Part shown: one piece after another, positions 18,762 to 62,647 of the stretch | How positions within the stretch are numbered: position 1 is the stretch's first letter | Layout: every line of letters starts with the position of its first letter | From: an uncultured Gammaproteobacteria bacterium | GTDB lineage: Bacteria > Patescibacteriota > Microgenomatia > CAYQLK01 | NCBI GenBank assembly: GCA_964404855.1 | Contig: CAYOLO010000002.1 | Location: 131,494 to 195,493, forward strand | Reading direction: 5' to 3' | DNA: 64,000 bases | The notes under the pieces: model-generated | Seen by the model: the letters and a program-made list of their open reading frames with translations, nothing else | What the model was told of the DNA's origin: nothing | Database searches by the model: none | Position numbers and translations under genes: made by a program

Positions 18762-19400
18762 CTATGGCACTTCTGATATTGCCATGTACCTGTTTGAGAT
18801 CCCAGACTTGTACAGCGACTCGTTCGTTTCAAAGAAGACATCGACCTGAGTGAACTCGAGGTGACCTCTATCCTCACAAACTACGATGCCATAGCCAGAA
18901 ATCTCCAGTTTTTGGCCCAGTTGCCATTTGGCACCACAAGCTGCGGCACCGACGTAGACGGCCTGACCGGAAGACATGTTTCCGCAATATCCTCCGCCGT
19001 CCCAGATTGGGAAACCACTAACCTGATGGCAGTAGTAACCAGTAACTTTGCTCTGAACCTGTACACCACCAGTTGAGGCTGCAGAAACCGCCTGAGCTGT
19101 TTCTGGAGTTGGTGTTGCGATTCTTGGTTGAACCGTTGGTGCTACCGTAGGCTCAATGGTAGGCGTGTTCGTGACCTCGACAACCAGTGTTGGTGATGAG
19201 GTAGGCAAATCAGCCTGAGTTGCGATCTCGTACACTTGAGGCGTCTGAGATGAAATCTCCGCAGCTGCTTTGGGTAGCTGTTCGGACTGAGATGGAACGC
19301 AGCTGGTCATAAAAATTATGACTAGCAGCATGACTCCGACCGGCCGCCAAAGATCTTGCAGCTGGTTTTCTGCGTGCTTTTGCGTAAACGCTTGGCGCAC
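18762..19400 (-). CDS. 3D-domain (MltA/YuiC-like) cell-wall-active protein with N-terminal TM and Thr/Pro linker
   Basis: C-terminal YYCHQVSGFPIWDGGGYCGNMSSGQAVYVGAAACGAKWQLGQKLEISGYGIVVCEDRG matches the 3D domain. GTG start with AGGAGG RBS 6 nt upstream. About 52% GC. Confidence 0.65.
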   Translation of the reverse strand: MRQAFTQKHAENQLQDLWRPVGVMLLVIIFMTSCVPSQSEQLPKAAAEISSQTPQVYEIATQADLPTSSPTLVVEVTNTPTIEPTVAPTVQPRIATPTPETAQAVSAASTGGVQVQSKVTGYYCHQVSGFPIWDGGGYCGNMSSGQAVYVGAAACGAKWQLGQKLEISGYGIVVCEDRGHLEFTQVDVFFETNESLYKSGISNRYMAISEVP

Positions 19401-40527: not shown

Positions 40528-40836
40528 TTACATCTTGAGCTCGATGTCGATACCAGCAGGAAGCTGGAGATTCGTCAAAGAGTCTATCGTCTTACCAGTT
40601 GGTTCGATGATGTCGATGAGGCGCTTGTGAGTACGGACTTCAAAATGCTCTTGTGCATCCTTGTGGGTATGCGGAGACTTCAGGACTGTATATCGCCTGA
40701 CTTTGGTCGGCAGCGGGATCGGACCGACGATTTTAGCACCGGTTGATACAGCTGTGTTTAAGATTTCACGACAAGTCTGATCAATAACCCGACTGTCGTA
40801 ACTTTTTAAACGAACTCTAATTCTGCCTTTTGGCAT
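40528..40836 (-). CDS. rpsJ: 30S ribosomal protein S10
   Basis: MPKGRIRVRLKSYDSRVIDQ. Confidence 0.9.
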   Translation of the reverse strand: MPKGRIRVRLKSYDSRVIDQTCREILNTAVSTGAKIVGPIPLPTKVRRYTVLKSPHTHKDAQEHFEVRTHKRLIDIIEPTGKTIDSLTNLQLPAGIDIELKM

Positions 40837-41051: not shown

Positions 41052-41543
41052 CTAGCCGACAGGTGCGGCGAGGATTTGGTTGGTGAATTCTACTGGAGAG
41101 ACCGCGCGGAACGCGACTCCTCCAGGGTACTTGAGCTCACCGCCGTCAGGTGCTACTCGCATCACGACCATCATCTCGTCTCGAGTGACGATGAACGAGG
41201 CGTGGGCGGCAAGATACTCCGAGCCTACCTCGAAGACCGTGTGTGTGCCGAGTCTGTCGAAGCTGGCGTGGTGCTCACGAAGATATACCATCGAGATGAC
41301 ACCTTCGGTGACGACGACGAACTTCTCGTCTTGGCCGAGTTGCCAGCGAGGGTTGTTGAGATCGTTTTGGATGTTTCGGAAGTCCGAAGAGCTAAGCGCT
41401 CCCCAGCCAATCCGACGGCCGTCAGTGTTGTACCAAACGGCATCAGCGACGACGACCTCGAATCCTGTCCTTTTTTGGCCGAGGACTAAGCCCCCAAAAG
41501 GAGCGCCGAAGTCGCTTTCCGGATCAATGTCCGGATCGATCAT
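41052..41543 (-). CDS. GC-rich hypothetical protein (163 aa), unit 4 of the rpsJ|tuf insertion
   Basis: About 58% GC ORF preceded by a family-type promoter. Its overlapping + strand ORF, 40941..41489, is judged an antisense artefact. Confidence 0.5.
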   Translation of the reverse strand: MIDPDIDPESDFGAPFGGLVLGQKRTGFEVVVADAVWYNTDGRRIGWGALSSSDFRNIQNDLNNPRWQLGQDEKFVVVTEGVISMVYLREHHASFDRLGTHTVFEVGSEYLAAHASFIVTRDEMMVVMRVAPDGGELKYPGGVAFRAVSPVEFTNQILAAPVG

Positions 41544-41640
41544 GCCAGGACTGAGCTTTACGGTAAGAATTGTCTTTCTCCATTTTTAGGGTGCGACTTT
41601 TACGACTGTGGTTTTGCAACCACAGGTCGAAAGTGCGATA

Positions 41641-41670
41641 TTTATATCATTTTTGAAGCTAAATGTCAAA
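41641..41670 (-). promoter_or_regulatory. family promoter copy A (minus strand: tagtaTTTGACA-17-TATAAA)
   Basis: -35 TTGACA (+ 41665-41670 as tgtcaa), 17-nt spacer tttagcttcaaaaatga, -10 at 41641-41646. Confidence 0.55.
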
Positions 41671-41703
41671 TACTAGAGGATACTTTTCTTTTTAAGAAAC
41701 GAG

Positions 41704-41846
41704 GTTTTTCAATTACTTTAATTAGCACATCAAAAATCCCCGCGTGATTTTTGATTCTCACTTTTTGTTCACTCTTTTGCTTGTGCAAAAACCATGCTCG
41801 TTCACAAAAAGAGGTCTAATTAAAGTAATTGAGGGATTAAATGACA
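41704..41846. repeat. conserved ~140-bp intergenic element, copy A
   Basis: About 85-90% identical to copies at 42571-42710 and 43974-44113. Contains hairpin caaaaatc-cccgcgt-gatttttg and stem ttttgc/gcaaaa at 41775-41790. Confidence 0.7.
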
Positions 41847-41854
41847 AAAAAAAA

Positions 41855-41880
41855 GAGCCCTCCTTTTTAGGGGAGGGCTT
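41855..41880 (-). terminator. family terminator hairpin GCCCTCC-TTTTTAGG-GGAGGGC plus T9 (minus-strand sense)
   Basis: 17 nt downstream of the stop of 41897..42415. Identical hairpins at 42745, 61966 and 62648. Confidence 0.7.
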
Positions 41881-41896
41881 GAGGAAAGGACGAGGA

Positions 41897-42415
41897 CTAC
41901 CACGTTGTGAGGGGTGTTCGCCCCGCAGACGCGGCTTGCTCGAATTGCTTTAACGCAAAGCTTTCGTCCGCTTCGGAATCGAAGAAGACTTTGAATTGCT
42001 GGGTTGGAACGTCGAAGTGAACAACCACAAGGCGCGCTTCGGTTTGGGTAAAGCCGCCAACGGCACCTTCGAGCGCATAGTCGACGACTGATCCCAGATT
42101 GAAGGACGCGTAAAGACAGATTGGCCGACTACCGTGTTTGTTAACGTAGTCGACGGCCGCGCCTAGAGCGTGTATATAAGCCTGCTCTGGCCTAAGGATG
42201 TTGATGTCCTCGTAGCGCATAAGTGGCGTACAGTTCTCGACGAGCGTCAGATCGCCGCGATTACTGAACAGCGTGAGATGACGCATACCTTGCGGCAAGA
42301 TGTCGAGGAGGCTGGGTGCTGGCTGGGTCGCATGTGATCCTGTCTTTTTAAGGAACAGAAAAACTGTCACAACAGCTACGACTACCAGACTGGTTACGAC
42401 AAGCGAGATGAACAA
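41897..42415 (-). CDS. GC-rich membrane-anchored hypothetical protein (172 aa), unit 3
   Basis: N-terminal TM (FISLVVTSLVVVAVVTVFLFL) followed by a soluble domain with no recognisable motif. About 56% GC. Confidence 0.55.
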   Translation of the reverse strand: MFISLVVTSLVVVAVVTVFLFLKKTGSHATQPAPSLLDILPQGMRHLTLFSNRGDLTLVENCTPLMRYEDINILRPEQAYIHALGAAVDYVNKHGSRPICLYASFNLGSVVDYALEGAVGGFTQTEARLVVVHFDVPTQQFKVFFDSEADESFALKQFEQAASAGRTPLTTW

Positions 42416-42483
42416 AGCTTATGGGGCTCCTTTTAGCTAAATGTGCTTCTGAGTGAGTTTTTACACTTACCCAATTGTTGTAA

Positions 42484-42511
42484 TTATATCATATTTTGAG
42501 CCTATAGTAAA
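42484..42511 (-). promoter_or_regulatory. family promoter copy C (diverged -35 TTTACT, 16-17 nt spacer, TATAAT)
   Basis: -10 at + 42484-42489 (attata), with spacer ...ctcaaaatatga similar to the other copies. Confidence 0.4.
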
Positions 42512-42570
42512 GAATCTGGTGAAATCTAATTTTAATATTACACAGTAGGGTTTTCTACTTTGTAGAAACA

Positions 42571-42710
42571 GTTTTTTCAATCCCCTTTCTTGGCACGTTC
42601 AAAATCCCTGCGAGATTTTTCTCTTTCACTTTTTGCTCGCTCTTTTGTCTTACAGACAAAAACCATGCCCACTACGCAAAAAGAGATCCAAGAATGAGAA
42701 TTGAGAGATA
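42571..42710. repeat. conserved ~140-bp intergenic element, copy C
   Basis: Same element. The covarying stem here is ttttgtct/agacaaaa (42643-42661). Confidence 0.7.
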
Positions 42711-42744
42711 TGAATTATGAAAATGAAGTCAAGCAAGAAGAAGC

Positions 42745-42772
42745 CCTCCTTTTTAGGGGAGGGCTATGGGCG
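42745..42772 (-). terminator. family terminator hairpin GCCCTCC-TTTTTAGG-GGAGGGC
   Basis: Downstream of the glpX stop (42798). Confidence 0.7.
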
Positions 42773-42797
42773 GATTGGTTTGTGAAGCGAACCGAGA

Positions 42798-43733
42798 CTA
42801 GTTGTCACGATCCCAATTGTGTTCGGTCTCGATCCGGCGAATAGTGCCGGTGAGGCCTCGCATCACGACTGAGTGACTGACCGTCACTCCGTGCGCCAGA
42901 GGCTGGATGCCTTGAAGCATGGTACCGTTGGTCACGCCTGTGGCCGCGAAATATGTATCCTGACTGGACACGAGATCGTCAAGGTTCATGACCCTGTTGG
43001 GGTCAATCCCCTTTTCGAGAATGGCACGCCGTTCTTCATCGCGAGAGATGAATGGCCGGCACTGCATGTCGCCGCGGAGAGCGATGATACCGCAGGCAGC
43101 CGTGACAGCCTCAGGCGACCCACCGCTGCCAAGCAGCATGTGAGCACCTGTGCCTGGCATGCAGGCAACCAGAGCGCCGGCAATGTCGCCGTCGCCAATG
43201 AGGTTGATGCGTGCACCCGCTGCCCGAACAGCTTTGATGATTTCGTTGTTGCGATCCCTTTTGAGGATGGTGACAACGACGCTGTTGACGGGAATGTCGA
43301 GAGCCTTGGCAACCTGCTCGATGTTCCAAGCGACCGGAGCGGTGATGTCGATTTTGCCCTTGGCTTCCTTGCCCACGACAATCTTGTCGAGGTAAAAGAA
43401 GTCACGGACGTCGATCATGGTCCCGCCTGGTGCGGCGGCGATAACAGCGATGGAACCTTCTCGCCCTTCGGAGAGAATGGTCGTCCCGTCGACTGGGTCG
43501 ACAGCAACATCCATCTTGGGTCCATTGCCGTTGCCGACCACTTGGCCGTTGAACAGCATCGGAGCTTCGTCTTTTTCGCCTTCGCCGATTCTGACGATAC
43601 CGTCCATGTCGACCGTGGCAAGCATGGCGTTCATGGCGTCGACGGCGGCTTGGTCGGCACCAATCTTGTCACCAAGACCGAACCAACGGACGGCACCGAG
43701 AGCGGCAGCTTCGGAAACCCGAATGAGCTCCAT
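42798..43733 (-). CDS. glpX: class II fructose-1,6-bisphosphatase (GlpX-type FBPase/SBPase)
   Basis: MELIRVSEAAALGAVRWFGLGDK...DGIVRIGEGEKDEAPML...VDPVDGTT...IGDGDIAGAL...LLGSGGSPEAV is colinear with GlpX. The ORF-track start at 43916 lies upstream of this unit's own promoter, so the start was set to the conserved MELIRV Met. About 58% GC. Confidence 0.8.
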   Translation of the reverse strand: MELIRVSEAAALGAVRWFGLGDKIGADQAAVDAMNAMLATVDMDGIVRIGEGEKDEAPMLFNGQVVGNGNGPKMDVAVDPVDGTTILSEGREGSIAVIAAAPGGTMIDVRDFFYLDKIVVGKEAKGKIDITAPVAWNIEQVAKALDIPVNSVVVTILKRDRNNEIIKAVRAAGARINLIGDGDIAGALVACMPGTGAHMLLGSGGSPEAVTAACGIIALRGDMQCRPFISRDEERRAILEKGIDPNRVMNLDDLVSSQDTYFAATGVTNGTMLQGIQPLAHGVTVSHSVVMRGLTGTIRRIETEHNWDRDN

Positions 43734-43887
43734 CCCGATATTGCGATCGGGCGTGGGAGTGTAGTTCCTGACCTTGAGTGGTCCGGAAGGGATGACGAGG
43801 GTTTGTGCCGATGTAATGGGTTTGGTTCTCCTTCTCCAAATAAATGAGCTGTAACGGACGTCCGTAACGGTTGTCCAAAACGGCGAA

Positions 43888-43916
43888 ATCTTACCACTTT
43901 TGAAGCTGTATGTCAA
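43888..43916 (-). promoter_or_regulatory. family promoter copy B (tagtaTTTGACA-17-TAAGAT)
   Basis: -35 at + 43911-43916 (tgtcaa), spacer tacagcttcaaaagtgg, -10 at 43888-43893. Confidence 0.5.
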
Positions 43917-43973
43917 ATACTACGGGCCTAAATAATAGTTATTTTGGAAAATATTAGTTTTTAATTACAAATT

Positions 43974-44113
43974 GTTTTCAATCCACTTTCTTGGCACACC
44001 AAAAATCCCAGCGTGATTTTTGTTTTTCACTTTTTGTTTGTTCTTTTGCTTGTTAAGCAAAAACCATGCCCACTCACAAAAAGAGATCCAAGAAAGTAAA
44101 TTGAGGGATAGTG
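43974..44113. repeat. conserved ~140-bp intergenic element, copy B
   Basis: Same element. The covarying stem here is tttgctt/aagcaaa (44044-44062). Confidence 0.7.
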
Positions 44114-44151
44114 AAAAAACAGATAGGAAGTTTGGAGTATTAAAGACAAGA

Positions 44152-44180
44152 AAAAGCCCTCGGGGTGAGCCGAGGGCTGG
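44152..44180 (-). terminator. family terminator variant GCCCTCGG-GGTGAGC-CGAGGGC plus T-run
   Basis: Immediately downstream of the stop at 44204. Same outer stem as the main family. Confidence 0.6.
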
Positions 44181-44203
44181 GGGGTGAACTTGGGAGGTGT
44201 TGG

Positions 44204-44716
44204 CTAGGCCAACGCGAGACTGGCGCGACGCATCAGCGAGACGACGTCGCCGCCTTGGGGCATGCCTTCTTCGAAGCGCTCGATGGCGTCGCAGTAGGGT
44301 TTGTCGGCGAGATACTCGTCGGTATGGATCCGCATCAAAAACGGAACGATTTCCGTGATGGCGGAGCTGTTGCCGTGGACTACTTCGCCTCCCCGCTTGT
44401 GGCGGAAGAAGAACGAATAACCAATGGTCAGCTCGGTTTCGAGCAGCCACTCGTCGGTCTCGAGGTCGGAAACGTGGAGCCTGCCGGTCTTGACGGACTC
44501 ATTACGGTTAATGAGCACGCCGTTCTCGGTCAGGAGATACATGTTGCCGCTTCGGCTGGTAAGCAGAACGGCGTTGAACTTGTCCCCACCGAGGAGCATT
44601 GCACCTTCACTGAACATGTCGCTCAGCCTGAAGACCCTGTCCGAATTGGCTCGGTCGATCCGATGGGCAAGGTGGTTACCCTTAACCTGGACCAGAATTG
44701 CTTCGGCGCTAGCCAA
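44204..44716 (-). CDS. GC-rich hypothetical protein (170 aa), unit 1
   Basis: TTG start with AGAGG RBS. No recognisable motif. The overlapping + strand ORF 44165..44746 is judged an antisense artefact. Confidence 0.5.
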   Translation of the reverse strand: MASAEAILVQVKGNHLAHRIDRANSDRVFRLSDMFSEGAMLLGGDKFNAVLLTSRSGNMYLLTENGVLINRNESVKTGRLHVSDLETDEWLLETELTIGYSFFFRHKRGGEVVHGNSSAITEIVPFLMRIHTDEYLADKPYCDAIERFEEGMPQGGDVVSLMRRASLALA

Positions 44717-44751
44717 AGTGTCTACACCTCTTTCTTAATGTTCTAAGGTAT

Positions 44752-44780
44752 ATTATACCATATTATAGGCTTATTTTCAA
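44752..44780 (-). promoter_or_regulatory. sigma70-type promoter for unit 1 (TTGAAA-17-TATAAT, minus strand)
   Basis: + strand tttcaa at 44775-44780 and attata at 44752-44757. Confidence 0.45.
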
Positions 44781-44802
44781 TTCTGATTAAATGAAAATGG
44801 TC

Positions 44803-44958: not shown

Positions 44959-46140
44959 TTAGGCAATTACCTTTGTGATGACTCCAGCACCTACGGTGTG
45001 GCCACCTTCGCGGATAGCAAAACGTAGACCTTCTTCCATAGCGACAGGTACGATGAGTTTGATTGTCATCTTGACTGTGTCACCAGGCATAACCATTTCG
45101 GTTCCTTCTGGAAGTTTAGCTTCACCAGTTACGTCAGTTGTACGGACGTAGAACTGTGGGCGGTATCCAGAGAAGAATGGAGTGTGGCGTCCACCTTCTT
45201 CTTTGGTGAGGATATAAACCTCAGCTTCGAATTCGGTGTGAGGGGTGGAAGTTCCTGGTTTAGTAAGAACTTGTCCACGCTCGACGTCGTCTTTTTCAAC
45301 TCCACGAAGTAGAACTCCAACGTTGTCTCCAGCTTGACCTTCGTCTAGCTGTTTGTTGAACATTTCGACTCCTGTGACGGTAGATTTCTTGATCGGGTTG
45401 ATACCAACGATTTCGATTTCTTCACCGACTTTGACAACTCCTCTTTCGATACGTCCTGTAACAACAGTTCCACGACCTTTAATCGAGAAAACGTCTTCGA
45501 CAGGCATCAAAAATGGCTTGTCAGTGTCGCGTTCAGGTGTTGGAACGAATTCGTCAACAGCTTTAAGCAATTCTTCGATACTCTTAACCCCTTCAGCGTC
45601 TCCTTCGAGAGCTTTGAGTGCAGAACCGCGAATAATCGGGGTTGTGTCTCCAGGGTATTGATACTTGGTCAAAAGTTCACGAATTTCCATCTCGACTAGA
45701 TCAAGAAGTTCTGGATCTTGAACCATATCAACCTTGTTCATAAAAACAACGATTGAAGGTACACCAACTTGACGTGCTAGCAAAATATGCTCGCGAGTCT
45801 GTGGCATTGGACCATCTGGAGCGGAAACAACAAGAATAGCACCGTCCATTTGAGCGGCACCGGTAATCATGTTCTTGATGTAGTCAGCGTGACCAGGGGC
45901 ATCAATGTGTGCGTAGTGTCTAGCTTCTGTCTCGTACTCAACGTGAGCGATAGAAATAGTAATACCACGCTGTCTTTCTTCAGGTGCCTTGTCGATTTGA
46001 TCGAAGGCTTTGAAGTTTGCCATTCCTTTGTCGGATTGGACTTTTGTAATAGCAGCAGTTGTAGTTGTTTTACCGTGGTCGACGTGACCGATGGTACCAA
46101 CGTTAACGTGCGGCTTGGTTCTTTCGAATTTGTCAGCCAT
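44959..46140 (-). CDS. tuf: elongation factor Tu
   Basis: [25 protein letters not shown]-motifs. 393 aa. Confidence 0.95.
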
Positions 46141-46270: not shown

Positions 46271-47077
46271 CTAGTTGGCTAAACATTTGCCGGCGGAGTA
46301 GATTCGGGAGAAAATATTGTTCGATATCAAAAAATGATCCAATTTTGCCATAAGCAGGTTTTGCTTAGCCTCGTCTTGAGATTTGCAGCTTAGAATAAAT
46401 TGTTCAACAAAATAAACAATCGTGAGCAGTTTGGTGAGATTGGAATTAATGAATACCCCATTTTGGGTTAGTTTTTGAACAATCAGATCAAAATCCAGTG
46501 AAAAACCATCCGCAAAAAGTAGTGAATTACAAAACTCATATTCGAGAGGTCCAAATTGGAAGTGTTCAAAATCAATTATTTTAACCCCTGAATCGGTAAT
46601 GATCAGGTTGCCAATATGTAGATCTCGGTGCAGTGGTTGTGAAGGGAAATTGTCCCAGTCTACTCTGTTTATATAATCGATAATTTGGGTTATTTTCCCC
46701 GTTCGATCAGACCCGAGTTTTTGCCGTAAGACACGGATATTTGACTGAAATTGGCTCTTATTTGCTTGCAGATAATTGATCCATTCTGTGTTACCGGATA
46801 ATTGAGTCTTGTTGAGCTTAGTAATAATATCTGAAAGCTGGTCGCATATTAGCGGTTTGTTTATCTGGTCATTACTCTTTAGTTTGTCAAAAATCGTCAA
46901 ACGACCCAGACGAAAAACAATTTTCGGCGCACTACCCGGACTATTGAAATAGAAAGTATTGATTCCTAATTCCTCTCTTCTGGCTAGTTCGGCGGATGTG
47001 TAGAACTTGAGAATGAATTTGTCCATTACATCAATCACGTTGTGTACTCCCCTTCCGGTTTGGATTAATTTGATCAT
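46271..47077 (-). CDS. APH/ChoK-fold phosphotransferase (aminoglycoside-phosphotransferase-like kinase family)
   Basis: Brenner motif HRDLHIGNLII and IDFE(H) metal-binding motif. 268 aa. Confidence 0.65.
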   Translation of the reverse strand: MIKLIQTGRGVHNVIDVMDKFILKFYTSAELARREELGINTFYFNSPGSAPKIVFRLGRLTIFDKLKSNDQINKPLICDQLSDIITKLNKTQLSGNTEWINYLQANKSQFQSNIRVLRQKLGSDRTGKITQIIDYINRVDWDNFPSQPLHRDLHIGNLIITDSGVKIIDFEHFQFGPLEYEFCNSLLFADGFSLDFDLIVQKLTQNGVFINSNLTKLLTIVYFVEQFILSCKSQDEAKQNLLMAKLDHFLISNNIFSRIYSAGKCLAN

Positions 47078-47084
47078 TGATGTG

Positions 47085-47804
47085 TTAAATTTTTAAGTCG
47101 AAGAGTACACTTGGGAATTTTGGATTGAGTGTAAAAGCTTCGGCATATTCATTCTCTTTGCTGCGCCTAAGATGATAACCGCGGACACACGAAAGTGACT
47201 TCTCGAATACAGTTGATTTTGAATCAGCCTGAGACTCGTAAATACCGAATAGCTGCATCTTCTGATCAATATAATCAGTGATATCGACCAAAACCTGCGG
47301 CACTATCGGCAACATACCTTCACCATACAGAACGATAGGTGTGCGGTGAGGATCACCTAGTTCTGGTTTGACTCCGGTAGCGGACCAAAAGGAAGCCTCT
47401 TCGACGACATGAGCCGCTTCTCGGTGGTCAGAGTGGTAGTCAAGCGGATTCATAGTAAAAATCACTTCCGGCCTAACTTGTCTAATTATTTTGACTACTT
47501 TGAACATTAGTTTTTTGGAAAACTGAAGATTGAGGTCTTCTTCGGCAAGTAGGAATTTTTGTTTTAGACCCAAAAATTCAGTCGCTTTGTCAAATTCTCC
47601 CTCGCGCAAGTTAATAACCGTATTTTTCGCACTCTTTGATCCGTTTCGTCTATCTCTGCCCTCTTGAGAGTTAGTCAGCAGTATTTCGTAGGCATTGAAT
47701 CCTTGATTTTGGAGCTTGAATACACTGCCGGCACAGGTAATGTGATCGTCGGCGTGAGCTGAAACGATAAGTATATTTTTGGTACTAATGGGTTTTTTGG
47801 ACAT
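47085..47804 (-). CDS. PIG-L/LmbE-family N-acetylglucosaminyl deacetylase
   Basis: ILIVSAHADDHITCAGS zinc-binding motif, plus HSDHREA. Confidence 0.75.
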   Translation of the reverse strand: MSKKPISTKNILIVSAHADDHITCAGSVFKLQNQGFNAYEILLTNSQEGRDRRNGSKSAKNTVINLREGEFDKATEFLGLKQKFLLAEEDLNLQFSKKLMFKVVKIIRQVRPEVIFTMNPLDYHSDHREAAHVVEEASFWSATGVKPELGDPHRTPIVLYGEGMLPIVPQVLVDITDYIDQKMQLFGIYESQADSKSTVFEKSLSCVRGYHLRRSKENEYAEAFTLNPKFPSVLFDLKI

Positions 47805-47815
47805 GTTCCTCCTTT

Positions 47816-49822
47816 TTATTTGGTAATAATTTGACTTGTAATTAGCTGGCGCTTGCTGCCGCCACCACTGGATGCTTCCAGTGAAGTGGTTACCCGATAC
47901 GCCGAGTGAGACTGTCCTTGGAAATAGTAGACGTATGGCTCTACCTCAACCACAGCCTTCTGTTTGCCGCCTTGAAAATCTGCATCCCTAAGCTCAAAAG
48001 CATTCTTAACGATACTGATCAGCTCTGGGTGGGCTAAATAAAAACCAATATCCAAACCATCACCGGTGGATGCAACTGAACCGCCAGGAACTACCCTGAC
48101 AACGGGCGAGACAAGAGCTTTGGTATTGGTACCAACGGATAACGGCGCAACGTAGTTACTGCCTAGTGAAGTGTTTTTGTGTGCAACAACTATTGGAGTG
48201 TCGAAGTGGTGTTCGAGCTGCTGAAGAAGAAGTGCCCAGCCATTACCGCCGAGTGTCAGCCCTTGTTCTTTGAGATCAGCTAGGAGTATATCCCCTTCAA
48301 GATCGAAGTGATTAATGTCTGGCTCGGACTCTTCGATAGGCCTAATTAGCTTGCGTGTCGCAATGTCCCACGGCCCGTTACCAAAAACTCCCCGTGCAAA
48401 ACCACTTTTTGCGCTGTCATCGAAATATGTTTCTGCAAGTCTCTGATGGAACTGATCATAGTGATTTTTACTGGCTTCAGTTACTAAGGCACCAAAATCG
48501 GTAATATCTGAAAGCTTAGCTTGGGTTGCAGCAAAAAGTTCGCTACTTGGCGTGTGAAAGATACCCAGTCTCTGGCATAGTTGTTTATTGAGGGCGTCGT
48601 AAAGCTGGGCGAATGTTGATGGGTTTGATTTTGAAAGGGTTTTGAGTTTGATTAAATAATCAGAAAAATCGGCTGAGTCAAACATTCGGTCTAATTCATC
48701 TAGATCGATATCTGAATTACTGTCCAAATTTTGAAGTTTGGCTTTGGTGTCAGGCAACTGTTCAGGTGGCATAAGACCAGTCGAAACCAGCGAAGGTATT
48801 AATACTCGTTCCAAGTATGACTTCACGGAGTGAGAATCGGGGTCGGTATCATAAAACGATACCCTTGTTGAGACTGTTCCATCCGGGTTTTTAAAGCTGG
48901 CAGCGACAGACAACATAATCGCTTCTACCGGGTTGGCAAAATCAGTTGTGCCGTAGTTGAAAACCGAGTGTTCGTCTAATTGCGATTTTTCGGCTAGAGT
49001 TAAGACAATAGGATCACCTTCTCGGTGTCCCAGAGCGGTCGCGACTCCAAGCACTGAGGACGGCAAAACATTATCGGGAATGCCGAAAATCGAGGCAATT
49101 TTGGGTTTTGGGACAGAATTTGCCTGTGCAGAATTAACTTTGACCGTTTTGGGTAATGGTGGGTGGAATTTGTCGTTGACGATTTTTGTGCGCTCCAGGT
49201 CATCGACCTGGTCTGCCATTGTTTGTAATATCTCAATGGCTTGTTTTGGATCCATGCCAGTAATCCGCTGATTGAAAAAACGAGTATCGAATATATCCTC
49301 GCCGAAAAATTCGGCAAACATTACCCAAACCCCGCTAACTACTAATCGATTGTGAATTAAGTCGAGCGTTTGGTTGAACTGCGCGGTTTGAGATCGATCA
49401 ACAAATATTTGGGGGTTAAGTGAGATAGACTCAGATAAGTGAATTGCCGTCTTGGGTAATATCTGCTCATTGAGCACAACCTTATCAGGATGCTCTAGCC
49501 GCGCAATGGTTACCTGAACAAGGTGATCAAAATTCTTAACCATTTTGCGTAATTCCTGAACTCTTAGCTGATCTGAGGTTGAAACATCAACCTGATTAGC
49601 TTTGGCAAGGCCAGCAATTCTGGATAGTTCAGTCCCAGGAATGAAGTTGACCGTGAATTTGGCTTGATTTGGTTTTGGGTGCTTACTTGCTTCAAGGCTT
49701 ACAAAATGTGAAGCCGAGTTAAAAACCTGTGTAAGCTCAATCGGCGGGAGTTCTGAAATATCTTTTAGCGGGTTAGCAAGTTCAGGACTGGTATTTGGTA
49801 TGGTTGGTCTTTCTTTAGTCAT
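47816..49822 (-). CDS. large hypothetical protein (668 aa), no recognisable domain
   Basis: Long uninterrupted ORF at ~47% GC with no TM and no signature motifs. Confidence 0.55.
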   Translation of the reverse strand: MTKERPTIPNTSPELANPLKDISELPPIELTQVFNSASHFVSLEASKHPKPNQAKFTVNFIPGTELSRIAGLAKANQVDVSTSDQLRVQELRKMVKNFDHLVQVTIARLEHPDKVVLNEQILPKTAIHLSESISLNPQIFVDRSQTAQFNQTLDLIHNRLVVSGVWVMFAEFFGEDIFDTRFFNQRITGMDPKQAIEILQTMADQVDDLERTKIVNDKFHPPLPKTVKVNSAQANSVPKPKIASIFGIPDNVLPSSVLGVATALGHREGDPIVLTLAEKSQLDEHSVFNYGTTDFANPVEAIMLSVAASFKNPDGTVSTRVSFYDTDPDSHSVKSYLERVLIPSLVSTGLMPPEQLPDTKAKLQNLDSNSDIDLDELDRMFDSADFSDYLIKLKTLSKSNPSTFAQLYDALNKQLCQRLGIFHTPSSELFAATQAKLSDITDFGALVTEASKNHYDQFHQRLAETYFDDSAKSGFARGVFGNGPWDIATRKLIRPIEESEPDINHFDLEGDILLADLKEQGLTLGGNGWALLLQQLEHHFDTPIVVAHKNTSLGSNYVAPLSVGTNTKALVSPVVRVVPGGSVASTGDGLDIGFYLAHPELISIVKNAFELRDADFQGGKQKAVVEVEPYVYYFQGQSHSAYRVTTSLEASSGGGSKRQLITSQIITK

Positions 49823-50033: not shown

Positions 50034-50354
50034 TTAATTACTAAAGTCTGTTTGAGTGTCTTGACCATCTTGAATTAATTCCTGATATTTTTCTTGATTT
50101 TTCATTCTGGCCTCTTCAGCTCTTTCCAGCTGTGCCTGGGGATTAACAGAAACGAAAATGGCGGCGGCAAATATCAAAAACCAAATCAGAACAAAAAAGG
50201 CAAAAATTCCGGTAACGAGGAATTTGACCCATTTGGGCCAAGCGGTCCAAATCCACATCAGTACAAAACCTGCAGGAAAGGCAAAAACCAATAACAAAAC
50301 TGTTACAAGTGTTTTGGTGTCACTGGACATTCCTTCAGACTTAGTGTTTACCAT
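50034..50354 (-). CDS. small two-TM membrane protein, hypothetical
   Basis: TVLLLVFAFPAGFVLMWIW and FLVTGIFAFFVLIWFLIFAAAIFV, with a Gln/Glu-rich C-terminus. Confidence 0.45.
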   Translation of the reverse strand: MVNTKSEGMSSDTKTLVTVLLLVFAFPAGFVLMWIWTAWPKWVKFLVTGIFAFFVLIWFLIFAAAIFVSVNPQAQLERAEEARMKNQEKYQELIQDGQDTQTDFSN

Positions 50355-50396
50355 ATGTTTTCATTGTGACTATTTTGGATGATTTTTGCAAAAAAA

Positions 50397-50420
50397 GCCC
50401 CCGGGGGTTAGCCGAGGGCG
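50397..50420 (-). terminator. family terminator variant GCCCCCGG-GGGTTAG-CCGAGGGC
   Basis: Downstream of the stop at 50448. Same arm sequence as the variant at 44152. Confidence 0.5.
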
Positions 50421-50447
50421 AATAAAGGGTGGTGGCAAAAGCTGTGG

Positions 50448-50993
50448 CTAGTTGCCCAGCCAGCTGCCGTGTGTGCCGATGATCTGCGTACCGTCGCGGA
50501 ACACGACCATGTCGTGGCTCGCACTAAAAATCCGCTTGCGCTGATCCTTGACTTCCAGCTTGAGGACCCAGCCGTTGAAGGACTGGGCCTGGACGTAGAC
50601 TCGGACCTGGCCGATCGGATTGGTCCTGATGTACTTCAGCCGATTGTTGATGATCTTGGTCGCGTCGAAGTTGACGACTTGGGCGCTGGCCAGGGTCATT
50701 TTTTCGAGGCTTGCAAGAAGAGTCTCCTCTGCAACGTTGGCATTGTCTACCTTAGCCATCTCCTCGCGGAATTTGGCAATGGCAAGCTCAAGCGGTTGGT
50801 CTTGGAGGTCAATGGCGAGGGTGGAGAAGATCGTCAGGACGACTGTCCTGTCTGCGTACGCGGCTTCAACAAGCCGAGTCAGCGTCCTCACACCGTGAGT
50901 ACGTCCGACGACCTCAAACATATACGGAAGCTGAAGTCCGTATGGAATGAGATCTTCGACCGAAGGGTATATTGTCCTTTTTTTGCGGGGCAA
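50448..50993 (-). CDS. GC-rich hypothetical protein (181 aa) directly downstream of fusA
   Basis: About 57% GC. TTG start with AGGAAG RBS. No recognisable motif. The + strand ORFs 50469..51029 and 50620..50898 are antisense artefacts. Confidence 0.5.
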   Translation of the reverse strand: MPRKKRTIYPSVEDLIPYGLQLPYMFEVVGRTHGVRTLTRLVEAAYADRTVVLTIFSTLAIDLQDQPLELAIAKFREEMAKVDNANVAEETLLASLEKMTLASAQVVNFDATKIINNRLKYIRTNPIGQVRVYVQAQSFNGWVLKLEVKDQRKRIFSASHDMVVFRDGTQIIGTHGSWLGN

Positions 50994-61766: not shown

Positions 61767-61928
61767 TTATGGCTTTTTTAGTTTTTTTAAGAAAAAGCCC
61801 CGTGGGTTGAGCACGGGGCGGGGTGTGGATTGGTCAGCCTGCCAAGGCAACAAAGTAGAGCACAGAATACGACCGCGCGCCCTATCGGGTTTATCGGACA
61901 TGTTCCAGAACGCCCTTGAACAGGTCAT
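61767..61928 (-). other. GC-rich ~150-nt transcription unit: candidate sRNA or 53-aa ORF (MTCSRAFWNMSDKPDRARG...), its 3' end spanning the 61796-61830 terminator
   Basis: Minus-strand -10 TATAAT at + 61948-61953, GC-rich segment 61830-61945, then hairpin gccccgtg-ctcaaccc-acggggc plus TTTTTCTT. The ORF reads through the terminator hairpin. Confidence 0.3.
61796..61830 (-). terminator. rho-independent terminator (gccccgtg/cacggggc stem plus T-run)
   Basis: Hairpin followed by tttttctt on the minus strand. Confidence 0.5.
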
Positions 61929-61965
61929 CCACACCAGGTAATTATATTACCGCTGGTCAAATAAT

Positions 61966-62010: not shown

Positions 62011-62475
62011 CTACAGAGGGAGCGCCACCTTGCGTTCCCGCCGGTGTCGGACTCGGGTAAGAGCCGCGGCGATACCGTTGCGGATCGCCTGGAGCGGGGC
62101 GCGATGGCCGACCAGCTGCATCTTATCGTCGATGGTTTCCATGACCAGCTCGGCCTGCTCGGGGTCGAGCATGAAGCCGTTTTTGGGGTACCGCGGTTTG
62201 GGGGTAAAAACTCCCGGACCGCCGTACTCGAGCAGCTGAACTTCGACTCCGGCAGCTTCGTAGCCGTCGAGGGCGCCGACGTAGAGGTCGAGCGGTCCAT
62301 CGCAGTGCAATGCGATAACCTGGTCTCCTGTCATGGCAACCGCGTCCTCGAATGCGCGACGGTAAGCCTCCTCGTACGCTTGCTCCAGGTGGGTATCAGA
62401 CCGCCTGGCAAAGAGGTATCTGTCGACATTGTCGGGACTGAACGTCCGACTATGTACGTCGGGCAGAGGCGGCAT
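62011..62475 (-). CDS. GC-rich hypothetical protein (154 aa)
   Basis: About 62% GC. The ORF-track start (62634) lies upstream of this unit's own promoter (62532-62560), so the start was moved to the first ATG downstream of the TSS (MPPLPDV). No recognisable motif. Confidence 0.5.
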   Translation of the reverse strand: MPPLPDVHSRTFSPDNVDRYLFARRSDTHLEQAYEEAYRRAFEDAVAMTGDQVIALHCDGPLDLYVGALDGYEAAGVEVQLLEYGGPGVFTPKPRYPKNGFMLDPEQAELVMETIDDKMQLVGHRAPLQAIRNGIAAALTRVRHRRERKVALPL

Positions 62476-62531
62476 CACACAGATGATTCTCAAGTTTCTG
62501 TTTGAACTCCTTTTGGTAATGAACTGAGGCG

Positions 62532-62560
62532 AATTATACTTGTTTTTAGATAAAAAATCA
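62532..62560 (-). promoter_or_regulatory. family promoter copy D (ctagtaTTTGATT-17-TATAAT)
   Basis: + strand attata at 62532-62537 and aatcaa at 62555-62560. Confidence 0.5.
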
Positions 62561-62647
62561 AATACTAGAGGATAGTCTGACACATATTTAATTATTTTTT
62601 GAAAGGGATTTGTAGACTCTAGCTTTTTTGCCAAACCAGCAAAATAA

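Follow-up and report, generated by a model that had tools for sequence, protein, structure and literature searches.

A possible uncatalogued family of structured intergenic repeats, mainly of Patescibacteria, with three copies between tuf and rpsJ

Four foreign-looking genes between tuf and rpsJ are separated by three similar intergenic elements (E1 to E3, 136-140 nt), and the question is what these elements are. The window (the whole stretch of DNA that was analysed, 64,000 nucleotides) was searched with a covariance model. The positions of the three copies noticed earlier were borne out by matches of 151-165 bits (E about 1e-29 to 1e-32); all three lie on the minus strand, on which they are best read. 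No fourth copy was found in the 64-kb window, including with the search filters off. The island and its parts are as follows.

41052-44716, minus strand: four-gene island between tuf and rpsJ, GC 53-57%
44204-44716, minus strand: geneA
43973-44111, minus strand: E3, between geneA and glpX, full length; 165 bits with covariance model R1, 135 bits with R2
42798-43733, minus strand: glpX
42572-42711, minus strand: E2, between glpX and geneC, full length; 154 bits with R1
41897-42415, minus strand: geneC
41704-41839, minus strand: E1, between geneC and geneD, full length; 151 bits with R1
41052-41543, minus strand: geneD

The copies are located 3' of geneA, glpX and geneC. Their identity had been given as about 85-90%, which was too high: pairwise global values were 82% (E3/E2), 81% (E3/E1) and 73% (E2/E1), and mean column identity was 79-87%. 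No ORF was conserved across the window copies; a plus-strand ORF of 9-12 codons was considered and rejected, as its frame is lost between copies.

For all three copies, a terminator-like hairpin on one side and the next sigma-70-like promoter on the other were confirmed. The three terminators and the promoters at 42483-42511 and 43888-43916 were listed by a scan; the promoter downstream of E1 was not in the scan list and was read from the sequence and an intergenic alignment.

44155-44178, minus strand: terminator-like hairpin of geneA, 43 nt upstream of E3 (scan)
43888-43916, minus strand: promoter-like site of glpX, TTGACA-17-TAAGAT, 56 nt downstream of E3 (scan)
42742-42765, minus strand: terminator-like hairpin of glpX (AGCCCUCCCCUAAAAAGGAGGGCU), 30 nt upstream of E2 (scan)
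42550-42569, minus strand: small hairpin just 3' of E2 (GUUUCUAC-AAA-GUAGAAAC), with a T-run after the hairpin on the plus strand
42483-42511, minus strand: promoter-like site of geneC, TTTACT-17-TATAAT, downstream of E2 (scan)
41856-41879, minus strand: terminator-like hairpin of geneC, 16 nt upstream of E1 (scan)
41683-41700, minus strand: equivalent small hairpin 3' of E1
41640-41669, minus strand: promoter-like site of geneD, TTGACA ... TATAAAT, downstream of E1 (sequence and intergenic alignment)

The glpX terminator hairpin recurs at 41856, about 61970 and 62649, and the glpX promoter region is homologous to the promoter module downstream of E1. The small 3' hairpin recurs with compensatory changes behind most copies of the window's subfamily; it may belong to the promoter module, because a similar hairpin is found in the related locus L142, which has no element. 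No promoter or terminator of the element's own was detected (no conserved -35/-10 5' of the copies, no U-tract after the outer stem), and orientation to neighbouring genes is mixed. A free-standing gene for a structured ncRNA or sRNA, among the roles first suggested, was not supported on these two grounds. Nearby, a candidate sRNA (61790-61945) has its own promoter and terminator.

The window copies were predicted to fold as a three-way junction with a 17-bp outer stem (P1), a long arm (P2) that carries a varying hairpin, and a second hairpin (P3, AAAAAUC-nCGCnGG-GAUUUUU). The hairpin CAAAAATC-CCnGCGn-GATTTTTG, as described in the earlier note, was carried by all three copies, with a stem shorter by one pair in copy 2. 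The arms of the varying stem also proved to be as claimed (TTTTGC/GCAAAA, TTTTGCTT/AAGCAAAA and TTTTGTCT/AGACAAAA); between copies 2 and 3 two pairs are changed there, both with full compensation, and copy 1 is shorter by 3 nt. Two features had been overlooked: the ends of each copy pair as the outer stem, which covaries too, and an additional helix encloses the varying hairpin. Among just the three window copies, 11 of the 45 predicted pairs had both sides changed. The parts of E3 are given below.

44088-44104, minus strand: outer stem P1, 5' arm (UCAAUUUACUUUCUUGG), pairs with 43978-43994
43978-43994, minus strand: outer stem P1, 3' arm (CCAAGAAAGUGGAUUGA), partner of 44088-44104
44027-44086, minus strand: arm P2, helix CUUUUUGUG/CAAAAAG
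44000-44022, minus strand: hairpin P3, CAAAAAUC-ACGCUGG-GAUUUUUG

P1 of E3 is a run of 17 pairs including two G.U, and those two are C.A mismatches on the plus strand. The P2 helix encloses a conserved GCAUGG internal loop and the varying hairpin (44043-44062). The single-sequence fold of E3 had a free energy of -42.4 kcal/mol (z -5.6).

Beyond the window, about 50 full-length copies were recovered with the covariance model, spread over roughly 45 loci; nearly all are in Patescibacteria/CPR genomes (Saccharibacteria, Yanofsky-, Uhr-, Moran- and Sungbacteria, and the window's lineage). The family was gathered by an exact P3 hairpin pattern, so that both the apparent invariance of P3 and the taxonomic spread are biased. 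The P3 loop nCGCnGG is conserved, and the P3 stem covaries in variants outside the search-pattern selection; the stem variant GAAUCC/GGAUUC was present in L122/L126. Elements of the family are about 120-160 nt, non-coding, and intergenic in every copy, with an outer stem of 17-24 bp that is an uninterrupted run of pairs in many copies. Across 39 family members 93.2% of cells were paired, against 40-57% (about 50%) with the partners slid. Double changes were found at 41 of the 45 pairs in these members, which was equalled in none of 500 shuffles, and across the family all 17 pairs of P1 covary. The helices are thus free to differ between subfamilies yet remain paired. Structure-blind alignment of 18 divergent copies (MAFFT with RNAalifold) recovered the conserved hairpin alone, because the helices are too divergent for sequence alignment. 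Single-sequence folds were used instead and gave the same architecture in 47 of 47 copies (median z -6.3). In the Yanofskybacteria subfamily a tandem G.A motif (CGAG/CGAG) extends the helix at the base of the outer stem; it was considered as a target-site duplication and rejected because it pairs. As the variation is compensatory, selection acts on the fold, not on the sequence. This claim of the earlier note was strongly supported and is extended here to the 39 members and 47 folded copies.

The modelled strand was more stable than its complement in all 47 copies, by RNA and by DNA parameters alike, and its G.U pairs outnumbered A.C mismatches by 70 to 25. The strand asymmetry argues for a single-stranded form.

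Several copies occur per genome (at least five in the CAYROP assembly, at least four in Yanofskybacteria JACPNJ), in keeping with a repeat; that the number per genome is nevertheless low was counted against one. Neighbouring genes were convergent 11 times and divergent three times; co-directional contexts comprised 12 sense and 16 antisense copies. Highly expressed genes (tuf, rpoB, r-proteins, groEL, dnaJ) are nearby in some cases, and some copies lie within r-protein and str operons. In the window's subfamily about nine of 11 copies are just downstream of a co-oriented gene, mostly 9-57 nt after it. Tandem or head-to-head pairs occur in L028 and L093, the L102 copy is nested inside another inverted repeat, and in L040 one upstream ORF runs on into the element. 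A PD-(D/E)XK nuclease adjoins an element in two of 39 loci. Plasmid, phage and viral-contig collections contained no copies, and literature searches on repeats, MITEs or attC in CPR gave nothing relevant.

Between species, copies at unrelated loci were more alike than the genes that surround them. In another species a copy that lies upstream of rpoB matches E1 at 92-95%, with only 81% identity in rpoB itself; L028 and L111 share a copy at 94%, inverted relative to ychF, against 73-76% in the genes. In L009 a gene and an element lie upstream of rpoB, both missing from the window. Beside an element in L028 there are an extra GC-rich gene and a second element, both without counterpart in L111.

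The island itself is strain-variable and foreign-looking by composition, and the elements sit at its junctions. GC3 on the gene strand is about 0.60-0.66 in geneC and glpX, whereas the neighbouring r-protein genes and tuf have 0.21-0.39; the closest named relatives of GlpX, at about 60% identity, are from Dehalococcoidia, Chloroflexota and Gaiellales. Gene content differs between strains, and the element count in relatives is 0, 1, 2 or 3. One unit is absent as a block in the relative L142, where the glpX promoter comes directly after the tuf terminator.

43926-44802, minus strand: unit of promoter, geneA, terminator and E3

Breakpoints between strains were at or just 5' of elements. E2 was deleted in L122/L117 via a 6-bp ATTCTT microhomology, leaving the 5' arm of the outer stem behind. 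In other strains the E1 slot was occupied by a copy at 88%, by a subfamily copy at 68% or by a 213-nt module of unrelated sequence. In strains with flanks that are 95% and 86% alike, the copies in the E3 slot share only 75%. At none of the three slots did orientation differ among more than 10 strain contigs. The gene insertion in L125 brought no new element with it, and three GC-rich single-gene units of the window (18762-19400, 50448-50993 and 62011-62634) have no element. No clean empty site was recovered: a metagenome scan for an element-free terminator-promoter junction gave two chance matches, the L122 E2 site was rejected as a microhomology deletion that retains the 5' arm, and the L142 junction as too diverged to define the element ends. 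No tRNA or tmRNA was found by a scan of the variant slots. The cassette proteins had no match in Pfam, NCBIfam or PADLOC, and only three marginal matches in PHROGs (E 1.6e-4 to 5.8e-4), to families of unknown function.

The elements were compared with known classes. In Rfam 15 no family reached its gathering score in the window; searches at E up to 10 over the elements gave nothing except a chance microRNA match, and at E up to 1 over seven loci of other subfamilies no match. Ribozyme, riboswitch and promoter readings were rejected (no hammerhead-like junction sequences, no internal -35/-10). Pfam searches of 20 non-ribosomal window proteins and of the L024/L079 neighbours returned housekeeping genes only. 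Neither the 64-kb window nor the 39 related loci of 8 kb contained a transposase, a recurring partner gene or a linked recombinase or integrase of the sort that the earlier note had proposed to look for.

Length in the attC range (57-141 nt), a position 3' of an ORF and folding of one strand were all found in the window copies. The attC core RYYYAAC/GTTRRRY was absent, and no AAC/GTT core was common to the subfamilies, whose ends are CUCAAUU...AAUUGAAAA in the window's subfamily and CAAG.../CCAUAG.../GUAU... elsewhere. There was no unpaired central spacer, no set of conserved extrahelical bases (attC L box) and no conserved bulge column. No IntI with attI and Pc was seen, there being no recombinase among the scanned window proteins or the recurring proteins of the 39 loci. 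Element orientation is uniform in the window and mixed elsewhere. Membership in attC was ruled out by the missing R/L core boxes and integrase and by this mixed orientation; what stands of the attachment-site idea is that a unit of promoter, gene, terminator and element forms one indel between relatives. MITE-like properties were also found (terminal inverted repeats, multiple copies, no coding capacity, insertion polymorphism). The terminal inverted repeats, that is the outer-stem arms of 17-24 bp, are not conserved in sequence between subfamilies, no direct repeat flanks 45 copies as a target-site duplication, and no parent autonomous IS with the same ends was found in the 64-kb window or the 39 related loci. 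An origin inside a known IS or MITE, named in the earlier note as an outcome that would speak against it, was thus matched in the terminal inverted repeats and in neither a target-site duplication nor a known IS/MITE. The architecture is a three-way junction, not the doublet of one 20-40-nt palindrome expected of REP/REPIN. IS200/IS605-type ends have similar subterminal hairpins at both ends, lack terminal inverted repeats and are oriented by the replication strand; in the element the two inner hairpins differ from each other, the termini carry inverted repeats, and both orientations occur with respect to r-protein operons.

At roughly 45% probability, the element is read as a member of a previously uncatalogued family of structured intergenic repeats resembling ERIC, BOX, REPIN and Correia repeats and found mainly in Patescibacteria/CPR. 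It would be a selfish or semi-domesticated module, spread or retained because a factor encoded elsewhere recognises its fold in single-stranded form, as ssDNA or, if the element is co-transcribed, as RNA. Movement between intergenic slots would take place by recombination or horizontal exchange. In the window the element takes up the sole dispensable DNA, from a terminator to the next promoter. It marks the junctions of a hypervariable island in which at least one unit of promoter, gene, terminator and element was gained or lost as a block. Counted against this reading were the lack of a target-site duplication, of a clean empty site and of a transposase, integrase or other recurring partner gene, the terminal repeats that are not conserved in sequence, the low copy number, the RNA-like conserved loops and tandem G.A, and the co-oriented downstream position of most copies in the window's subfamily.

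ERIC/IRU sequences of Enterobacterales and Vibrionales are imperfect palindromes of about 127 bp, intergenic, variable in copy number and found in either orientation; no enzyme is known to mobilise ERIC or the element. The element is like ERIC in being an imperfect palindrome, non-coding, intergenic, in either orientation, variable in copy number and conserved through deep lineages, with compensatory changes that keep a single-strand fold. It differs in host clade (CPR) and has no sequence relation to ERIC, which is described as one long hairpin without a three-way junction and conserved hairpin loop. Pneumococcal BOX repeats (boxA-boxB-boxC) are modular and intergenic, with paired ends that close the fold, often beside variable genes. 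The likeness lies in paired ends closing a stable fold around an internal module, in either orientation and often beside variable genes, whereas BOX has a variable number of boxB, is confined to streptococci and showed no homology to the element. Like REPINs (REP doublets with RAYT transposases), the elements are hairpin-forming repeats kept via a single-stranded fold, at low to moderate copy number and over long times, that are found preferentially 3' of genes and seldom between divergent ones; however, the element has no GTAG-type core, and no Y1/HUH gene was seen in the 64-kb window and 39 related loci. Correia-type MITEs of Neisseria share with the element a small size, the lack of coding capacity, multiple copies and terminal inverted repeats; they too insert at the ends of genes and are polymorphic for presence or absence. 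They differ from the element in its lack of a target-site duplication, in terminal repeats that vary yet stay complementary, and in that no parent IS is known.

A less probable explanation is that the element acts as RNA, either as a cis element in 3' UTRs or intercistronic mRNA or as a processed small RNA, and that its spread is secondary. As a cis element it might stabilise the transcript, be processed by RNase III or act as a platform for proteins to bind. In favour is the three-way junction, in which all helices covary. The conserved internal and hairpin loops and the tandem G.A of one subfamily look more like a functional RNA or protein-recognised fold than junk. Perfect stems of 17-24 bp are suitable for RNase III, G.U pairs are favoured on one strand, operon-internal copies must be co-transcribed, and the co-oriented downstream position of about nine of 11 window-subfamily copies would suit a 3'-UTR role. 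However, about half of the copies are antisense to flanking genes, including some in r-protein and str operons, and there transcription would miss the modelled strand. A strong terminator-like hairpin precedes each window copy, and own signals are lacking, unlike in the candidate sRNA at 61790-61945. Copies are dispensable between close strains, and the strand asymmetry is equal with DNA parameters. It is unlikely that the element is a recombination site for capture or exchange of promoter-gene-terminator-element cassettes, whether integron-like with a putative recombinase or as portable homology for RecA exchange after natural transformation. This would account for the three same-orientation copies between four genes of foreign composition, the single indel relative to L142, the strain breakpoints, and the gene-plus-element differences at L009 and between L028 and L111. 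Long attC sites such as VCRs resemble the element in length (attC/VCR about 60-140 nt) and single-strand folding; array copies of both are about 75-85% alike, both lie 3' of gene units (here in one orientation at the window locus), and a branched centre is allowed in long sites. Against it, the R''/R' and L''/L' boxes, extrahelical bases, central spacer and IntI/attI/Pc are lacking, and units here carry their own promoter and terminator. Most family members lie outside arrays in mixed orientation, many between housekeeping genes without a cassette; the gene inserted in L125 came without a new element, and the three other GC-rich units of the window have none; and the one resolved deletion used microhomology, not element-element recombination.

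A double-stranded DNA site (an inverton, a regulator or nucleoid-protein site, or a gyrase site like REP/BIME), in which the inverted repeats would be protein-binding or crossover sites, is very unlikely. Perfect inverted repeats of 17-24 bp around about 90 bp, the mixed orientation with a near-identical copy inverted between L028 and L111, and the proximity to highly expressed genes would fit such a site. However, three internal helices covary that a duplex does not need, so that the regulator-binding site suggested earlier leaves them unexplained and was not supported. The arms are not conserved in sequence, and the strand asymmetry of all 47 copies favours a single-stranded form. For an inverton, no flip was seen at the three slots in more than 10 strain contigs, and no promoter-like motif is present inside the element.

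The structured-repeat reading is of interest because CPR/Patescibacteria make up a large share of bacterial diversity, with tiny genomes in which few mobile elements have been recognised and hardly any non-coding elements catalogued. Given the breadth across CPR and compensatory changes in almost every pair, the family is a widespread structured repeat or else a class of RNA, new in either case and missing from Rfam. It is conceivable, if improbable, that the element is the recognition module of an unrecognised CPR gene-gain system, integron-like without IntI/attC. Its strand-specific three-way-junction fold on incoming or replicating ssDNA would then be used by a recombinase or nuclease encoded elsewhere that inserts or swaps foreign promoter-gene-terminator-element units in intergenic slots beside highly expressed operons. 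The alternative novel reading is that of a structured RNA class, new and widespread, that would have a biochemical role in these reduced genomes. The element marks hypervariable slots in which individual strains carry genes of foreign composition, in this case between tuf and rpsJ, which makes gene gain by reduced symbionts directly testable. Even if only a selfish repeat, it would still be useful for annotation and as a strain-typing marker. Metagenome contigs were found to end at the element, and the family explains assembly breaks at certain intergenic sites in these organisms.

On the minus strand of the window, tuf (44959-46140) and rpsJ (40528-40836) are separated by an island of four genes, set in an otherwise contiguous rpoB-rpoC-rpsL-rpsG-fusA ... 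tuf ... S10-operon block. The island genes and the three copies of a structured intergenic repeat (E1 to E3) are:

44204-44716, minus strand, geneA, island gene
43973-44111, minus strand, E3, repeat copy
42798-43733, minus strand, glpX, GlpX-type fructose-1,6-bisphosphatase (Pfam, 393 bits)
42572-42711, minus strand, E2, repeat copy
41897-42415, minus strand, geneC, island gene
41704-41839, minus strand, E1, repeat copy
41052-41543, minus strand, geneD, island gene

The composition of the island genes is foreign. Their GC is 53-57%, with GC3 of 0.60-0.66 (gene strand, measured for geneC and glpX only); the adjacent ribosomal-protein genes and tuf have GC3 of 0.21-0.39. Among named relatives, GlpX is closest to those from Dehalococcoidia, Chloroflexota and Gaiellales (~60% identity). 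A sigma-70-like promoter and a terminator-like hairpin were listed by a scan for each of geneA, glpX and geneC; for geneD the hairpin came from the scan and the promoter was read from the sequence. As the earlier note had it, the copies fill the three internal gaps of the island, each with a terminator before it and a promoter after it.

The three copies were recovered by repeat finding, alignment and a covariance model, initially built on the three themselves. No fourth copy was found in the whole 64-kb window by a filter-free covariance-model scan. The copies are indeed alike, at pairwise identities of 73-82%, somewhat under the 85-90% first estimated. The conserved hairpin, present in all three, and the varying hairpin with complementary arms are exactly as originally described, and are part of a larger fold, for which RNAalifold predicted 45 pairs on the minus strand. 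In this fold an outer stem of 17 bp (P1) pairs the two ends of the element, a helix CUUUUUGYG/CRCAAAAAG encloses a GCAUGG internal loop and the varying hairpin (together P2), and a further hairpin has the form AAAAAUC-nCGCnGG-GAUUUU (P3). Two-sided changes occur at 11 pairs among just these three sequences. The folding energy was -42.1 kcal/mol for the minus strand and -32.4 kcal/mol for the plus strand; the minus strand is the better folder because C.A mismatches of the plus strand become G.U pairs on it.

One genome per species was scanned for the conserved hairpin at its 18 specified bases, and the model was then run on the fetched DNA, yielding full-length matches in ~45 loci. A second covariance model was made from 39 of these, with which distant matches rose to 70-108 bits. 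Because copies were gathered through this pattern the set is biased, and P3 invariance and host range are to be taken as lower bounds and not as measurements. In copies found by other routes the P3 stems covary and the loop stays (GAAUCC/GGAUUC in loci L122 and L126). The element had no match in Rfam, for the window or related loci, and no copies in plasmid, phage or viral collections.

By record title, the hosts are Yanofskybacteria, Uhrbacteria, Moraniibacteriota, Saccharibacteria, Sungiibacteriota, Paceibacteria and Minisyncoccia, one Margulisiibacteriota MAG, one Planctomycetia MAG, and MAGs labelled 'Bdellovibrionales' and 'Gammaproteobacteria'. Of these two labels one, at the least, looks unreliable: L028, from a 'Bdellovibrionales' record, shares synteny with a Moraniibacteriota locus at 73-76% DNA identity, and EF-Tu of the 'Gammaproteobacteria' MAG CAYQLK is identical to that of the window. 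Title and content conflict in L113, L130, L009, L079 and others, and in L028, L051 and L093; MAGs under the title 'uncultured Gammaproteobacteria' have the EF-Tu of the window, unchanged, within a CPR-like gene order that lacks L30. In relatives of the window L30 is absent between S5 and L15, and rpoBC, str and S10 are kept contiguous, an arrangement that fits CPR; on these grounds the window was treated as a CPR-type genome, with a caveat on the label.

In the 39-sequence alignment, standard pairs fill 93.2% of cells and two-sided changes occur at 41 of 45 pairs, which bears out the proposal of selection on structure and not on sequence. Sliding the partners by 1-3 columns left 40-57% of cells paired, and shuffles 64%. 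As this alignment had been fitted to the model, 47 copies were additionally folded singly; all 47 gave the same outer stem and pair of inner arms (median z-score -6.3). When divergent copies were aligned with MAFFT, blind to structure, P3 alone was recovered, which shows that the pairing of the helices is conserved and their sequence is not. Many family copies have outer stems unbroken over 17-24 pairs, and the Yanofskybacteria subfamily has a stem extension in which CGAG faces CGAG (C-G, G.A, A.G, G-C).

The modelled strand, which is the minus strand in the window, holds 70 G.U pairs against 25 A.C mismatches. It is stabler than its complement in 47/47 copies with RNA parameters (-56.8 vs -47.5 kcal/mol) and DNA parameters (-34.5 vs -29.7 kcal/mol) alike. 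This asymmetry in G.U pairs and stability indicates that the single-stranded form of one particular strand matters.

The genomic context argues against a dedicated transcript. Where the neighbouring genes are co-directional, 12 copies are in sense to them and 16 are antisense; 11 copies stand between convergent genes and three between divergent ones. Antisense copies are found within ribosomal-protein and str operons, namely at rplN-rplX and also after rplP (L067), at rpsL-rpsG (L106) and before rplB (L092). Comparison of the flanks of family copies gave no conserved promoter 5' and no U-tract 3', and each window copy is placed behind a terminator-like hairpin. The element differs in this from a candidate small RNA of ~150 nt at window 61790-61945 (minus strand), which would be a self-contained RNA gene with its own TTGACC-17-TATAAT promoter and a hairpin and U-run terminator; the element has neither. 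The 5' and 3' ends of this candidate pair (z -3.1), it is ~69% conserved in a related species (L009 4868-5095), and it had no Rfam match.

The element is multi-copy, with several copies per genome. Tandem and head-to-head pairs occur (L028, L093), one copy is nested within another inverted repeat (L102), and in L040 an upstream ORF runs on into the element. Across species, copies are more similar than the genes flanking them. A copy that lies upstream of rpoB in a different species matches E1 at 92-95% identity, and the rpoB DNA of that species is 81% identical; the equivalent site in the window is without the element and without the adjacent 222-aa gene. L028 and L111 have a common copy, 94% alike and inverted relative to ychF, between genes 73-76% identical. 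In this ychF-phosphomannomutase gap (L028 2036-3220, L111 6287-6603), from another CPR lineage, L028 gained a 394-aa gene (GC 62% vs a background of ~50%) and a second element copy, a gain that parallels the tuf-rpsJ island.

Contigs carrying exactly the S10 or EF-Tu of the window show the island to be a mosaic between strains. E2 is deleted in L122 and L117 via a 6-bp ATTCTT microhomology, leaving the 5' arm. The E1 slot holds an 88% copy in L125, a 68% subfamily copy in L122 and L126, and an unrelated structured 213-nt module in L118. This module (876-1088, equivalent to window 41680-41846) stands in place of E1 between flanks 96% identical, folds well (z -3.15) and matched neither an Rfam family nor a tRNA; over its first 40 nt it is similar to the DNA that precedes E3 and the L113 copy on their upstream side. 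It suggests a putative second family of exchangeable intergenic modules. In the E3 slot, a copy from another strain is just 75% like that of the window between flanks 95% and 86% alike, and a 91% relative of E3 lies next to dnaJ in a different species. In L125 an additional AT-rich 146-aa gene (60-560) is inserted between the geneC terminator and E1, and the octamer TTTTTTGT occurs at each junction; a duplication or recombination in the T-run may account for this. More distant relatives have one island element (L143) or none (L142). The glpX promoter directly follows the tuf terminator in L142, and promoter-geneA-terminator-E3 (~876 bp) is therefore one indel. Many metagenome contigs end at an element.

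The observation holds, and it reaches further than the earlier note could see. The element is previously uncatalogued, strongly supported in its structure, and widely distributed across a poorly annotated branch of the bacteria. What the comparisons show is a family with one fold and strand bias, mixed in orientation and polymorphic. At a probability of about 0.45, we read it as a new family of structured intergenic repeats of the ERIC/BOX/REPIN/Correia kind, selfish or semi-domesticated, propagated through the fold and exchanged between slots. The one-strand fold would be recognised by some trans-acting factor, by which the element is kept or propagated, and exchange between intergenic slots would proceed by recombination or horizontal transfer. 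We infer that spread depends on the fold and involves a factor encoded elsewhere. Structured intergenic repeats are a known kind of element; what is new here is the architecture, the range of hosts and the association with gene units that vary.

RNA and ssDNA are alike compatible with the strand bias, and a duplex-DNA site is given very little credence. An RNA-level role, as a 3'-UTR or intercistronic element or an RNase III site, is rather unlikely; it does not conflict with the structured-repeat reading, as repeats of the ERIC and BOX type are transcribed. A role for recombination in the capture of gene units is improbable: gene-plus-element indels and breakpoints at elements are real local evidence for it, but other GC-rich single-gene units in the window have no element, and the defining features of attC fail. 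The element is not an attC site: R and L boxes and extrahelical bases are lacking, no integrase was found in the window or related loci, and orientation is mixed outside the island. Terminal inverted repeats are present, but with no target-site duplication and no parent IS found in the window or related loci the element is not a classical MITE. Its orientation is fixed across strains and it has no internal promoter, and thus it is not an inverton. No conserved peptide is encoded.

Single-gene units of foreign composition, all on the minus strand, lie at 18762-19400, 41052-44716, 50448-50993 and 62011-62634. In this AT-rich genome they have GC of 0.51-0.57, and GC3 of 0.50-0.66 (where the gene strand was measured) vs ~0.21-0.35 for most of the genes around them. 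Among their products GlpX alone was matched by Pfam, NCBIfam or PADLOC, and PHROGs gave only one to three marginal matches. Gene callers disagree on the coding strand of two of them. The same terminal hairpin, AGCCCUCCCCUAAAAAGGAGGGCU, closes several units (41856, 42742, ~61970, 62649). A further interruption of the str operon lies between fusA and tuf (46271-49822 and 50034-50993), where the inserted genes encode a 181-aa GC-rich ORF, a 106-aa ORF, a 668-aa protein that matched no family, a PIG-L-type deacetylase and an APH-type kinase. The inserted block is conserved in all strain contigs.
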